Assembly: GCF_036365525.1 (NCBI RefSeq)
Contig: NC_090390.1
Coordinates: 74,712,918-74,776,917 of the forward strand
From: Heterodontus francisci
Taxonomy: Eukaryota
Length of the DNA stretch: 64,000 bases
Direction: 5' to 3'
The number at the start of each line of letters is the position of its first letter. Position 1 is the stretch's first letter. Made by a program: the position numbers and the translations under genes. The notes below the pieces were generated by a model. That model saw only the letters and a list, made by a program, of their open reading frames with translations, was not told where the DNA came from and did not search any database. Of the stretch, positions 31,322-45,410 are shown piece by piece.

Positions 31322-31770
31322 GGGGGATATGGTAGCACAGTGGTTATGTTACTGGATCAGTAATCTAGTAAACCTAGACTAATAATCTAGAAATGCGAGT
31401 TCAAACCCCATCATAGCTGTTATGAAATTTAAACTCAGTTAATTAAATACATCTGGAAAAGAAAGCTCCTATTAGGAAATGTGACCACAAAACTATCAGA
31501 TTGCTATAAAAATCCAACTAGTCCACTAATGGCCTTTCGGGAAAGCAATCTGCTGTCTTTACCTCGTCTGACTTATATGCAGCTGAGGACACACAGCAAT
31601 GTGGCTGACTTTTAAATAGCCTAGTAAGCCACTCAGTTGTATCAAGCCTCTGCAACCATCATCACGTGGACTGTCGAAGCCACCTCATCTGCACCTTCTC
31701 AAGGATAACTAGGGAAGGGAAATGAATGCTGGCCTTGCCAGTGACTCCCACATCCAGTCATTGGAAAAAA
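31322..31770 (+). mobile_element. tRNA-headed bipartite SINE (LINE 5' part + LINE 3' end), old long variant
   Basis: Head ggtagcacagtgg...gagttcaaaccc, body as in 41466-41765, 3' part as in 45230-45346. Confidence 0.75.
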
Positions 31771-35873: not shown

Positions 35874-37437
35874 TGTAGCAATCCTGGGAAATCCCTACGT
35901 CGGGTTTTCTTGCTGATTAACAAAATCTAACTTAAGTACTATGACTAAAGACCATAGAGATCCATGGCAGTCAACCTTCTGGGAAGAAGATGCCACCAAC
36001 GAATGAATGAACTATGACTGAAGTATGTAAATTGGAGGCTTCATTAGTTGATATGCTCTGGGTAAAGACGTTGAAAGGTGACATGTTGGGAAACTGTGGT
36101 TTGGACTTTCATTGACCAAATGATTTATTGGCCCAAAAGGTGTAAAAGGAACCAAGTGGTCAAAAAGTAAACTTCAGCAAAATTCTATTAGTATGTGAAA
36201 ACAGACAGCTTGCTGTGTGGGAGCTACAGAATAAACACCCTTTGCAGGATCTCAGAAGCCCAGATGTGAGTTAAAGCCGAGACAAAATAACTAGGTGCCA
36301 AGGCCACTGCGTTTGCCCTGCTTTGGCTCAGCACTAGCATTGGCATGTTTACGAGCTGATAGGTGTTGGATCGTGGGAAGCCAGAGATCTTAAGTGTTTG
36401 ACCTGGCTTGGGCGAGCAGATAGTTCAATGACATCTTTTGTAATTGGGCCGATTAAATAATTTTTAAAAATTCGTTCATGGGATGTGGGCGTTGCTGGCT
36501 TGGCCAGCATTTATTGCCCATCCAGAATTGCCCTTGAACTGAGTGGCTTGCTAGGTCATTATAGAGGGCATTTAAGAGTCAACCACATTGCTGTGGGTCT
36601 GGAGTCACATGTCAGCCAGAGCAGGTAAGGACGGCAGATTTCCTTCCCTAAAGGACATTAGTGAACCAGATGGGCTTTTACGACAATCGGCAATGGTTTC
36701 ATGGTCATCATTAGACTAGCTTTTTTAATTCCAGATTTATTAATTGAATTCTAATTTCACCAACTGCTGTGGTGGAAGGCGGTGGCATAGTGGTAATGTC
36801 ACTGGACTTGTAACCCAGAGACCCAGGCTACTGCTCTGGGAACATGGGTTCGAATTCCACCATCGCGGATGATGAAATTTGAATTCAATTGATCTGGGAA
36901 TTAAAAAACTAGTCTAATGGTGACCATGAAACCATTGTTGTAGAAACCCATCTGGTTCACTAATGTCCTTTAGGGAAGGAAATCCACTGTCCTTACCTGG
37001 TCTGGCCTACATGTGACTCCAGGCCCACAGTAATGTGGTTGAAATAATAGTGAGGTAATGATTGGGTTAATTCAGTCTTCATAGACATTGTTGTGAAAAG
37101 GGGTAGAGAGATTTCCAGCCAGAGGAGGTTTGGAACCATCTCGCAGATGGACCCTCACAGAAGAATGGAGCTGACAGAGGAACCACCTGTATATGTGCCA
37201 CATTACCTGGCATGACCAGGGAGTGATTACATGGAGATCATGCTTCTACCCAGAGTATAATGGTAATGTTGCTGCGCTTTGATATGACTGCTTAGATGTT
37301 GGCATGTGCAAAGTCTTACTTAAACTGAATAAAATATAACCGCTGTCACTAATAAGGGTTATCACATCGAATCATTTCAGTATTTGGGAACAGGGGGATA
37401 AAAGGTTAATTGACTCCAAACCCCAAAATTTCTAACA
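35874..37437 (+). mobile_element. Solo LTR (probably Gypsy-type), ~1 kb net
   Basis: TGTAG...TAACA termini, AATAAA at ~37328, 4-bp flanks GGGC/GAGC; cleanly interrupts the TIR element. Confidence 0.6.
36462..37041. mobile_element. Head-to-head inverted dimer of the tRNA-headed SINE (minus 36462-36775, plus 36776-37041)
   Basis: Both arms match 42977-43362; the whole unit is flanked by AAATAAT (36455-36461, 37042-37048). Confidence 0.85.
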
Positions 37438-40823: not shown

Positions 40824-42976
40824 ATAATGATAGATTAAAGGTTCTGATTTTGCGGTCAGCGGTGATGCAAGGGCGCCCACCACTGACATCGAAGGTAACT
40901 GCCCATATAGATCTAATGATCTCTGGCAGAATTTCCTCTTTCCTGATGACAGCTAAAATCTGGCCCCCAAGTCAGGGGGATCTCCAGACATGCAGCAGCA
41001 GTGATGTCAGCAGCTGGTAGGCAACCAATCAAATTGAATTATTTACACATAGCAAACCAGAAAGTTAAATGCACTTAATATCCTTCAATTTTAATGGAAA
41101 TGTTCAGATTGTGAAATATATGTTTGACTGTATTAAGGTAGAAGCTAAAATAAAGATAAACAGACTTCTAAAAAAATGTTTTTTTAAAAATGTGATTTAA
41201 AAAAAAAATCTGTGTAAAGATATTTGACATTCTAGAAATTTAAATGAGCTTTTCCAGGTCAGTGAGGGTATATGACTGTAATTTTGAAGTTAGTATGGTG
41301 TTAAATGCCCAGTTACACCCTATTCAACAAGGTTTAACTTTTGCCAGAATTTTACAGCCAGACTAAAACTATTGAAGTCAACAATCTTGTCAACTCATGA
41401 TTGCAATGTAAATTGCAGTCTGTGGGAACCTCTACGGTGCACCCCTGGAGGAGCGTAGACGCACTAGTAACCCAGGGACCCTGGGTATTTCTCTGGGGAT
41501 CTGGGTTCAAATCCCACCACAGCAGAAGGTGGAATTTGAATTCAATTAAGAAAAAGATCTGGAATTTAAAAAAAAGCTAGTCTAATGGTGACCATGAAAT
41601 CATTGTCGATTGTTGTAAAAACTCATCTGGTTCACTAATGCCCTTTAGAGAAGGAAATCTGTAATCCTTACTTGGTCTGGCCTACATGTGACTCCAGACC
41701 CACAGCAATGTGGTTGACTCTAAAATGTCTTTGGAAATGACCTAGCAGCCCACTCAGTTGTATCTAACCGCTACGAAGCCAATAAAACAGAATGAAACCA
41801 GACGGACGACCCGGCATTGACCTAGGCACCGGAAATTACAACGGCAAACCTAGCCCTGTCGACCCTGCAAAGTCCTCCTTACTAACATCTGGGGGCTTGT
41901 GCCAAAGTTGGGAGAACTGTCCCACAGACTAGTCAAGCAACAGCCTGATATAGTCATACTCATGGAATCATACCTTACCAACAATGTCCCAGACACTGCC
42001 ATCACCATCCCCGGGTTTGTCCTGTCCCACCGGCAGGGCAGACCCAGTAGAGGTGGCGGCACAGTGGTATATAATCAGGAGGGAGTTGCCCTGGGAGTCC
42101 TCAACATCAACTGCAGACCCATGAAGACTCATGGCATCAAATGAAACATGGGCAAGGAAACCTTCTGCTGATTACCACCTACCGTCCTCCCTCAGCTGAT
42201 GAATCAGTACTCCTCCATGTTGAACAGCACTTGGAGGAAGCACTGAGGGTGGCAAGGGCACAGAATGTACTCTGGATGTGGGACTTCAATATCTATCACC
42301 AAGAGTGGCTCGGTAGCAACACTACTGACCGGGCTGGCCGAGTCCTAAAGGACATAGCTGCTAGACTGGGTATGTGACAGGTGGTGAAGGAACTAACAAG
42401 AGGGAAAAACATACCTGACCTCATCCTCACCAATCTGCCTCACGCAGATGCATCTGTCCATGACAGTATTGGTAGGAGTGACCACCGCACAGTCTTTGTG
42501 GCGATAAAGTCCTGCCTTCACATTGAGGAGACCCTCCATCGTGTTGTGCGGCACTACCACCTTGCTAACTGGGATAGATTTCAAACAGATCTAGCAATGC
42601 AAAACTGGACATCAATGAGGCGCTGTGGGCCATCAGCAGCAGCAGAATTGTACGCAACCACAATCTGTAACCTCATGGCCCGGCATATCTCAGGAGCAGC
42701 ACCAGGCATACCTCAAAATGAGGTGTCAACCTGGTGAAGTTACAACACAGGACAACTTGCATGCCAAACTGCGTAAGCAGCATGCAATAGACAAAGCTAA
42801 GCGATCCCATAACCAATGGATCAGATCTAAGCTCTGCAGTCCTGCCACATCCAGTCGTGAATGGTGGTGGATAATTAAAGAACTAGTTGGAGGAGGTGGC
42901 TCCACAAATATCCGCATCCTCAATGATGGGGGAAACCCAGCATATCAGTGCGAAAGAGAAGGCAGAAGCATTTGAA

Positions 42977-43362
42977 GGTGGTGGCATGGTGGTAATATCA
43001 TTGGATTAGTAATCCAGAGCCCAGGCTAATGCTCTGGGGACATGGGTTCGAATCCTACCACGGCAGATGGTGAAATCTGAATTCAGTTAATGAATCTGGA
43101 ATTAAAAGCGAGTATAATGATCACCATGAAACCATTGTTGATTGTTGTAAAAACCCATCTGGTTCACTAATGTCCTTTAGGGTAGGAAATCTGCTGTCCT
43201 TACCTGGTCTGGCCTACATGTGACTCCAGACCCACATCAATGTGGTTAACTCTTAACTGCCCTCTGAAATGGCCGCACAAGCCACTCAGTTGTCAAGGGA
43301 TGGGCAACAAATGCTGGCCTAGTCAGCGATGCCCACATCCCACAAACTAATAAAAAATAATA
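42977..43362 (+). mobile_element. tRNA-headed bipartite SINE, full length, nested in its partner LINE
   Basis: A box TGGCATGGTGG (42982-42992), B box GGTTCGAATCC (43045-43055), 3' tail matching the LINE tail. Confidence 0.88.
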
Positions 43363-43903
43363 ATTTTCAGCCAGAAGTGCTGAATTGATGATCCATCTCG
43401 GCCTCTTCCTGAAGTCCCCAGCATCACAGATACTAGACTTCAGCCAATTCGATTCACTCAACGTGATATCAAGAAACGACTGAAGGCACTGGATACTGCA
43501 AAGGCTATGGACCCTGACAATATTCTGGCAATAGTACTGAAGACCTGTGCTCCAGAACTTGCTGCGCCCCTTGCCAAGCTGTTCCAGTACAGCTACAACA
43601 CTGGCATCTCCCCAGCAATGTGGAAAATTGCCCAGGTATGTCCTGTACACAAAAAGCAGGACAAGTCCAACCTGGCCAATTACCACCCCATCACTCTACT
43701 CTCAATCATCAGTAAAGTGATGGAAGGTGTCATCGACAGTGCTATCAAGTGGCAATTGTTTAGCAATAACCTGCTCAGTGACGCTCAGTTTGGGATCCGC
43801 CAGGGTCACTCAGCTCCTGACCTCATTCCAGCCTTGGTTCAAACATGGACAAAAGAGCTGAACTCAAGAGGTGAGGTGAGAGTGATTGCCCTTGACATCA
43901 AGG

Positions 43904-44222
43904 GGGAGGCACAGTGGCGCAGTGGTTAGCACCGCAGCCTCACAGCTCCAGGGACCCGGGTTCAATTCTGGGTACTGCCTGTGTGGAGTTTGCAAGTTCT
44001 CCCGGTGACCGCGTGGGTTTTCGCCGGGTGCTACGGTTTCCTCCCACAGCCAAAGACTTGCAGGTGATAGGTAAATTGGCCATTGTAAATTGCCCCTAGT
44101 GTAGGTAGGTGGTAGGGAATATGGGATTACTGTAGGGTTAGTATAAATGGGTGGTTGTTGGTCGGCACATACTAGGTGGGCCGAAGGGCCTGTTTTGGTG
44201 CTGTATCTCAAAATCAAATCAA
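43904..44222 (+). mobile_element. HE1-type V-SINE nested in the LINE RT region
   Basis: Highly similar to 11063-11422; TSD ATCAAGG (43897-43903, 44223-44229). Confidence 0.9.
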
Positions 44223-45410
44223 ATCAAGGCAGCATTTGACCGAAAATGGCATCAAGGAGCCCTAGCAAAACTGAAGTCAATGGGAATCAGAGTGAAAACT
44301 CTCCATTGGTTGGAGTCATACCTAGTGCAAAGGAAGATGGTTGTGGTTGTTGGAGGTCAATCATCTGAACTCCAGGACATCACTGCAGGAGTTTCTCAGG
44401 GCAGTGTCCTAGGCCCAGCTGCTTCATCAATGACCTTCCTTCAACCATAAGGTCAGAAGTGGGGATGTTCGCTGATGATTGCTCAATGTTCAGCACCATT
44501 CGCGACTCTTCAGATACTGAAGTAGTCCGTGTAGAAATGCAGCAAGACCCAGACAATATCCATGCTTGGGCTGATAAGTGGCAAGTAACATTCACGTCAC
44601 ACAAGTGCCAGGCAATGACCATCTCCAACAAGACAGAATCTAACTATCTCCCATGAAATTCAAAGGCATTATGATCACAGAATCTCCCACTATCAACATC
44701 CTGGGGGTTACCATTGACCAGAAACTGAACTGGAGTAGCCATATAAATACTGTGGCTACAAGAGCAGGTCAGAGGCTAGGAATCCTGAGGCGAGTAACTC
44801 ACCTCCTGACTCCCCAAAGCCTGTCCACCATCTACAAGGCACAAGTCAGGAGTGTGATGGAATACTCTCCACTTGCCTGGATGGGTGCAGCTCCAACAAT
44901 GCTCAAGAAGCTCAACAACACCCAGGACAAAGCAGCCCGCTTGATTGGCACCTCATACACAAACATTCACTCCCTCCACTACCGATGCACAGTGGCCGCA
45001 TTATGTACCATCTACAAGATGCAATGCACCAAGGCTCCTCAGACAGCACCTTCCATACCTGCAACCTCTACCAACTAGAAGGACAAGGGCAGCAAATACA
45101 TGGGAGCACCACCACCTGCGCAATTCACACACCATCCTGACTTGGAACTATATCGCTGTTCCTTCACTGTCACTGGGTCAAAATCCTGGAACTCCCTTCC
45201 TAACAGCACTGTGGGTGTACCTACCTCAAATGGACTGCAGCGGTTCAAGAAGGCAGCTCACCACCGTCTTCTCAAGGGCAATTAAGGATGGGCAATAAAT
45301 GCTGGCCTTGCCCGCGATGCTCACATAACATGAATGGATAAAAAAAACGCACTGACAGCAACCTCTGGATTTCCACGTTATTCTGCGCATATGCAGGCTC
45401 CTGAAGTCAG

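Follow-up and report, generated by a model that had tools for sequence, protein, structure and literature searches.

How can a long interspersed nuclear element (LINE) come to bear the 5′ end of a short one? By the textbook division LINEs are coding and transcribed by RNA polymerase II (Pol II), and SINEs (short interspersed nuclear elements) are non-coding, with RNA polymerase III (Pol III) as their transcribing enzyme. The question is raised by the element at 41466..45346 of a 64,000-nucleotide stretch of the Heterodontus francisci genome (contig NC_090390.1; “the window,” in whose numbering coordinates are given), in which a tRNA-like head precedes an endonuclease–reverse transcriptase (EN-RT) open reading frame (ORF). 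The element, now dead, belongs to Zenon, an abundant LINE of elasmobranchs (~3.3 kb, CR1 group), and the unit of head, leader, ORF, and tail is Zenon's normal form. Judging from its sequence, Zenon, with the tRNA-like A/B-box head as its own 5′ end, is probably transcribed end to end by Pol III.

An initial annotation of the window, made from the letters alone, had proposed that head, EN, RT, and tail were inserted as one unit, and the target-site duplication (TSD) ACGCACT on which this relied does flank the element on both sides, its last 3 nt also agreeing with the family element at the cut point. The equation of the first ~300 nt with the local tRNA-headed SINE is borne out by 81% identity between 41466–41761 and the SINE at 43008–43293; the B box lies where it had been placed, reading GGTTCAAATCC here and mostly GGTTCGAATCC in the family; and the ~30 nt said to be missing from the 5′ end together with the A box amount to 33 nt by comparison with other family copies. 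The EN-RT frame of this copy is disrupted by stops, frameshifts, a ~70-nt deletion at 42689/42691 (relative to other copies), and two insertions, of which only the one labeled HE1 had been recognized; both are nested SINEs. Pieces of the Pfam domains Exo_endo_phos and RVT_1 were found, below the curated cut-offs on such fragments, and nothing in an Rfam scan of the window reached its gathering score.

Is the head a property of the family or of this copy? A search with the head–ORF junction returned 5,590 candidates, of which 40 were scored and 39 copies fetched; the junction was spanned by all 40 and the head present in all 39, mostly ~3.3-kb elements starting at the tRNA 5′ end. Since this search is by design biased toward the head, two further searches were made with coding DNA only, in each of which 30 loci of 40 scored were kept, leaving 56 copies after removal of self hits and two duplicates. 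A full tRNA-Thr-like A/B-box head is found in 33 of the 56 (one broken by an insertion), while 11 are truncated inside the head, 11 start at nt 328–356 with unrelated flanks, and one starts at nt 416; no other shared 5′ end was seen among them. The cluster at 328–356 comprises 11 of the 23 truncations, a concentration that not one of 20,000 uniform draws reached; it coincides with ACCGCTACG and the positions immediately 3′ of it. The junction is kept in older copies, 75%–85% identical, and upstream of the ORF there is only a ~350-nt leader, with no alternative 5′ UTR (untranslated region) in the 56 copies, in line with the earlier statement that ORF1 is lacking. Family copies have a poly(A) tail, and clear TSDs are uncommon (2/26 near-full-length copies, by inspection). 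A second truncation cluster, at family nt 186–202, holds 6 of the 23 (L074, L086, L090, L091, L274, and L296), and at four loci (L033, L048, L049, and L286) Zenon copies immediately adjoin or follow further Zenon copies or fragments.

The same arrangement is found outside Heterodontus. All seven published elasmobranch Zenon consensi (PMC13343379 Table S2; first 400 nt, compared by motif search and by eye), from white shark, stingray (a ray), whale shark, catshark, and dogfish (three), start with the same head and leader, and six of the seven have the same ATG. Both boxes are retained across these five species while the intervening variable arm diverges (by eye), the B box of the stingray consensus being degenerate. 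Among the first 400 nt of 1,003 CR1-group consensi GGTTCGAATCC occurs three times, always in elasmobranch Zenon. The head is not in the first 400 nt of the three Zenon consensi from hagfish and coelacanth, where runs of four or more Ts (T4+) are present, nor was it matched in 80 metagenome relatives (best E 0.08; 4 relaxed ARAGORN calls there). Presence of the head throughout the family and in the published consensi rules out a one-off chimera of SINE and LINE, as which a single copy might have been read.

Pol III type 2 units are expected to start ~10 nt upstream of the A box. Across 60 LINE heads, the 5′ end of full-length copies falls on a single G lying 10 nt upstream of the A box, with the A-box T at nt 11. 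This boundary is sharp, with G in 48/60 and, one base further out, A25/T16/G15/C4; in 27 SINE heads the end point coincides with this one but is less sharp. A cap-derived extra G was considered and is not significant (15/60 vs. a background of 17%, P=0.08). Of 26 decayed copies, some of them 5′-truncated, 18 keep a strict A box and 16 a strict B box. ARAGORN reads homologous SINE heads as tRNA-Thr(agt), and genomic tRNA-Thr gives the best partial alignment to the head among the only two isotypes compared; Rfam offers tRNA-Sec for the head at E=5.3 only and, for the leader, matches at E 2–5 with no ribozyme or internal ribosome entry site family (ribozyme E<10). The 9-mer ACCGCTACG is confined to the LINE, lies 16 nt before the ATG, and is found in most of the published consensi. 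The leader holds two AATAAA hexamers, at nt ~120 and, immediately ahead of the ATG, at nt ~341 (L034:5330-5710, minus strand). At the other end, 16 of 30 tails have one T before the poly(A) and 14 have 2–9; such variable T-runs, examined as a possible terminator signature of the kind that T+ SINEs carry together with AATAAA, are probably accounted for by ageing, as in B2, where the accessible part of PMC8466645 describes T gain before the tail as an ageing effect.

If Pol III traverses the whole element, its sense strand should be poor in terminators, the shortest being TTTT and TVTTT (PMC8466645, in the part accessible). Over 3,303 columns of 26 near-full-length copies no T4 is in the majority, and T3 occurs in only eight column runs. 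In copy L043, TTT is found 5 times against 13.6 expected from codon shuffles (P=0.0005) and TTTT plus TVTTT once against 5.2 (P=0.0055); rho(TT) is 0.71, and a codon-final T stands before a T-initial codon in 5/102 cases versus 166/702 elsewhere (odds ratio, OR, 0.17; P=2e-6). Runs of A4, C4, and G4 are near expectation. The controls behave differently: 28 open-frame CR1 pieces of the same genome (18.5 kb) have 4.2 T4/kb, rho(TT) 1.14, and OR 0.93; none of the distant relatives (open frames of 450+ codons, 55 of 80 loci) is T4-free, their median rho(TT) being 1.06 and the minimum 0.86; and a young RTE element of the same genome, matched in T and GC and having neither ORF1 nor tRNA head, holds ~4 fixed T4/T5 runs with TTT at expectation (25 vs. 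25.7). A T-poor RTE had been considered, an appearance due to one short piece; full copies hold the fixed T4/T5 runs. It is the depletion at the level of TT and TTT, with these controls, that carries the case, and not the absence of TTTT. The deficit would be best explained by Pol III transcription.

Segments 80%–85% identical to a young copy have no T4 in 11.8 kb, where simulated neutral decay of 13%–18% gives 0.5–0.65 T4/kb; the bins below 80% and at 85%–90% identity are as expected if a T4-free sequence had decayed neutrally. In an older group 112 of 2,154 columns are different, 67 of them synonymously; here too T4 is never in the majority, and the T differences of this lineage adjoin another T less often than private changes do (OR 0.47, P=0.016). 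Phenylalanine makes up 1.9% of the Zenon protein against a median of 4.0% in 127 relatives, one of them equally low, and all eight conserved Phe positions are retained. Two of the closest relatives, P0018 (lancelet) and P0014, have 1.8% and 2.4% Phe, and are candidates for other T-poor, possibly tRNA-headed elements.

Within the window itself, the scarcity of T4 reported for the element stands as a count, the only runs being at 43364, 44018, and 44193, the last two within the nested insert 43904–44222 and the first at a SINE junction, where the longest-frame copy is T4-free in the corresponding stretch. For TTTT alone the scarcity does not stand out clearly from chance (P 0.056–0.13), whereas TT and TTT are depleted beyond codon shuffles and beyond same-genome LINEs. 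The other family fragments in the window, eight in our count, are T4-free as described, except for one T4 at a tail, and the neighboring CR1 pieces do have their T4–T5 runs.

What would such an RNA encode? In the family the EN-RT frame stays open for 975 codons after a stop within the leader, and no Met occurs in it before codon 284, which lies past EN. Shared variants have a synonymous to non-synonymous ratio of 32:28 versus 434:1326 for private ones (P=3e-6), which shows that this frame was under purifying selection. A conserved AUG near nt 352 opens 46 codons with EN in the −1 frame, as the initial annotation had noted for the out-of-frame ATG. In the overlap both shared non-CpG variants (+31 and +124) are silent in the EN frame and non-silent in the ATG frame. 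The EN frame thus appears to have a coding role by about codon 10 past the ATG, with an early Arg-rich stretch that resembles the N-terminal ends of P0014 and P0015. Upstream of the ATG the spacer measures 38 nt in four genomes, 37 in dogfish, and 34 in whale shark (by eye), and since its length varies the frame is not set from further upstream. We infer that the EN frame is probably entered at or just after the AUG. That type 2 Pol III promoters can drive a translated reporter RNA is reported in the available portion of PMC8223928.

None of the outcomes that the initial annotation had named as refuting its Pol III interpretation was observed. The interpretation thus keeps two of its supports, a family-wide head and depleted T-runs, and loses two others: the lack of ORF1 is no pointer to Pol III because all Zenon elements are without it (PMC13343379), and the missing in-frame ATG is no evidence because the same-genome RTE also has none before its endonuclease.

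Several observations weigh against Pol III transcription or against parts of the scheme built on it. The absence of TTTT taken alone has P ~0.08–0.13 in dinucleotide shuffles of five T4-free copies and P=0.056 against codon shuffles, and copies of one family are non-independent samples. CR1 has a small TTT deficit of its own (259 vs. 283.5), and the RTE control is partly depleted (TTTT plus TVTTT 6 vs. 11.3, P=0.014; codon-junction OR 0.43–0.51), so some T avoidance is not specific to Pol III. TVTTT, a moderate terminator in B2 assays (PMC8466645, accessible part), stands at head nt ~57–60 in 13/26 young copies, as TATTT in the alignment. The helix predicted between the A box and ACCGCTACG shows no covariation (92% of cells paired, no compensatory change, below shuffles) and is not formed in a single-sequence fold, and the leader folds no better than its shuffles (z −1.4). 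No slippery site was seen by eye. Contigs from RNA runs span the whole element and give no strand, start, or polymerase, three of the four runs being only presumed RNA; and the papers found contain no precedent for a natural 3.3-kb Pol III mRNA.

With these points counted, we lean toward a fuller reading in which elasmobranch Zenon would have been an autonomous, Pol III-transcribed coding retrotransposon since before the split of sharks and rays, its 3.3-kb uncapped RNA being translated through a structured, tRNA-derived leader with an out-of-frame AUG and its SINEs arising by internal deletion. TFIIIC would bind the internal A and B boxes and Pol III start at the first G, run ~3.3 kb through a body free of terminators, and stop where flanking DNA supplies a T-run. 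Ribosomes would be recruited to this uncapped RNA at the conserved AUG near nt 352; entry into the EN frame would follow within ~10 codons, either through a −1 shift or through an AUG-independent start, and is the least certain step. Beginning at the A tail, the protein would then make a copy of its own RNA by target-primed reverse transcription, which may often stall at the 3′ edge of the folded leader.

Could Pol II do the same work from the same head? LINEs swap 5′ UTRs, and the tRNA-derived head might have been captured as one from which Pol II transcribes, the scarcity of T reflecting other constraints such as U-rich splice or cleavage signals or the codon habits of the lineage; we consider this unlikely, though it deserves a hearing. 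The partial T depletion of the headless RTE, the TVTTT tolerated in the head, and the slight G excess at the 5′ boundary (P=0.08) would fit it, the closest relatives P0018 and P0014 are also Phe-poor, so that part of the T bias may predate the head, and the available portion of PMC8223928 mentions that Pol II might make use of a type 3 Pol III promoter. Harder to accommodate are both boxes kept over five species beside a diverging variable arm (by eye), a start G common to LINE and SINE, AATAAA hexamers within the leader, and a TTT depletion that is strong in Zenon and absent in RTE.

Two further schemes keep the head and alter its role. Pol III might make only the RNA that is copied, with the protein supplied in trans from Pol II-made host read-through transcripts. 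T-run avoidance and the 5′ end would then be explained without translation of an uncapped RNA, and action of the enzyme in trans is evident from the abundant short derivatives; that the ORF was under purifying selection in spreading lineages is, however, easiest to understand if the master encodes its own copying protein, and we hold this division of roles to be improbable. Still further down we place a head acting at the level of RNA, for which the chances seem slight: masters would be co-transcribed from host promoters and a tRNA-like fold excised to give the precise 5′ end. The sharpness of that end and the retained cloverleaf-like fold agree with this, but, taking the A-box T as position 8, the end would be 3 nt upstream of position 1 of the tRNA and not at the RNase P site, no ribozyme family matches at E<10, and T-run avoidance is left unexplained.

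Transcription by Pol III from the head would also bear on where the local SINEs come from. The short elements consist of the LINE's first 323–345 nt and last 75–150 nt, the tail starting within the final ORF codons; at least four head/tail junctions are found (323/3217, 326/3189, ~345/3167, and 337/3150), and some retain leader sequence otherwise confined to the LINE. Their shared ends mark the local SINEs as internal deletions of the Zenon LINE. Since a promoter in the head moves with it, every deletion sparing head and tail would yield a ready-made SINE. The union of head and ORF may itself go back to capture from a lost SINE or to a tRNA added to the LINE's own UTR. Elsewhere in the window, 31325–31760 is an old short Zenon derivative with a junction unlike that of the common SINE and a head that ARAGORN reads as tRNA-Thr, and at 36470–37040 two SINE copies stand back to back on opposite strands, meeting at 36773/36775.

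Features of the Zenon copy in the window
Feature	Position	Strand	Basis or remark
Left TSD ACGCACT	41459..41465	+	Direct read of sequence
3′ portion of tRNA-like head (anticodon arm, long variable arm, T arm)	41466..41525	+	Homologous SINE heads, ARAGORN
B box GGTTCAAATCC; family mostly GGTTCGAATCC	41504..41514	+	
Leader body; common to short derivatives; conserved in five other elasmobranchs	41526..41759	+	
Single EN-RT frame (975 codons in family)	41746..45285	+	Broken in this copy
ACCGCTACG, complementary to A-box region; predicted leader-closing helix	41767..41775	+	
Conserved AUG and 46-codon overlapping ORF; EN frame is −1 relative to it	41792..41932	+	
Nested SINE: Zenon's own head joined to its own tail (internal-deletion derivative)	42975..43363	+	
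Second nested SINE; not in other copies; the name HE1 is the initial annotation's label, unconfirmed	43904..44222	+	
3′ end in common with SINE: final ORF codons, 3′ UTR with AATAAA, A tail	45273..45346	+	
Right TSD ACGCACT	45347..45353	+	Direct read of sequence

The wider meaning depends on the polymerase. A natural 3.3-kb Pol III mRNA for a ~960-residue enzyme would break the division between LINEs and SINEs; it would make the LINE the parent of its own SINEs, and it would provide a test system for the translation of uncapped Pol III RNA and for the length of Pol III runs. Builders of tools for retrotransposon-based insertion may also take an interest in a terminator-free EN-RT cassette with an internal promoter. 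Should Pol II be the polymerase after all, the papers searched still yielded no tRNA-headed LINE conserved over sharks and rays.

How new, then, is the element? Its homologs are single-ORF EN-RT proteins of at most 40% identity, the exceptions being three short proteins at 76%–81% (one a whale-shark fragment) and an 88% partial match in a shark protein. An RT tree without a named Zenon reference puts the element outside the clade with in-genome CR1, the base being unresolved, and a provisional assignment to the L2 clade was dropped after the match to the published elasmobranch Zenon consensi. According to the part of PMC13343379 at hand, Zenon is present in elasmobranchs as well as in coelacanth and hagfish; in every case ORF1 is lacking and there is a poly(A) tail. 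Our element agrees with its elasmobranch members, whose consensi are 2.9–3.3 kb long, in leader, ATG, and EN start (by eye, first 400 nt) and in having a single ORF. The main text of that paper has no match for tRNA, Deu, promoter, or polymerase, and in its Zenon account, as far as available, we found no mention of the head or of T-run avoidance, nor of an out-of-frame AUG or of SINEs derived from the LINE. The family and its lack of ORF1 are already known, then; the tRNA-type head appears to have gone unremarked. Literature searches over titles and abstract openings, with Repbase, Dfam, and subscription journals outside their scope, found no description of a Pol III or tRNA-headed LINE.

Among other LINEs, the same-genome RTE resembles Zenon in having no in-frame ATG before EN and differs in its fixed T4/T5 runs and its lack of a tRNA head. 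RTE-1 reportedly has a 43-codon overlapping first ORF, and R2, a Pol I co-transcript, is known for AUG-less translation of uncapped RNA. A young RTE-clade family of the genome (L260–L267, e.g., G000 C1:133467400-133473400) has copies 95%–98% alike and ~4.3 kb long, with open frames of 1,013–1,069 codons, a 5′ UTR rich in C, and no in-frame ATG ahead of the endonuclease, and several of them are flanked by TSDs; a fragment of the RTE family is nested in L048:3170-4025.

Among SINEs, those derived from tRNA (SINE2) also have an A/B-box tRNA head, and the short elements share both ends with the LINE; the description “short and non-coding” fits only these derivatives and not the Zenon LINE, which has 3.3 kb and a selected frame of 975 codons. 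SacSINE1 and the Deu-SINEs, in the available text of PMC5499810, are likewise tRNA-headed shark SINEs of similar size, but SacSINE1 has a Deu domain and an L2-2_CM tail where the tail of the Zenon derivatives is Zenon's own; by eye the leader has no likeness to bivalve Meta or Deu domains, and a provisional labeling of the head as SacSINE1/Deu was withdrawn. The bipartite-LINE model, as given in the accessible part of PMC5786205, has a Pol II LINE deleted internally first and a small-RNA head added later, with only RTE or Vingi found as LINE partners. In Zenon the coding LINE itself bears the head, and SINEs arise from it by a one-step route, a single deletion, repeatedly.

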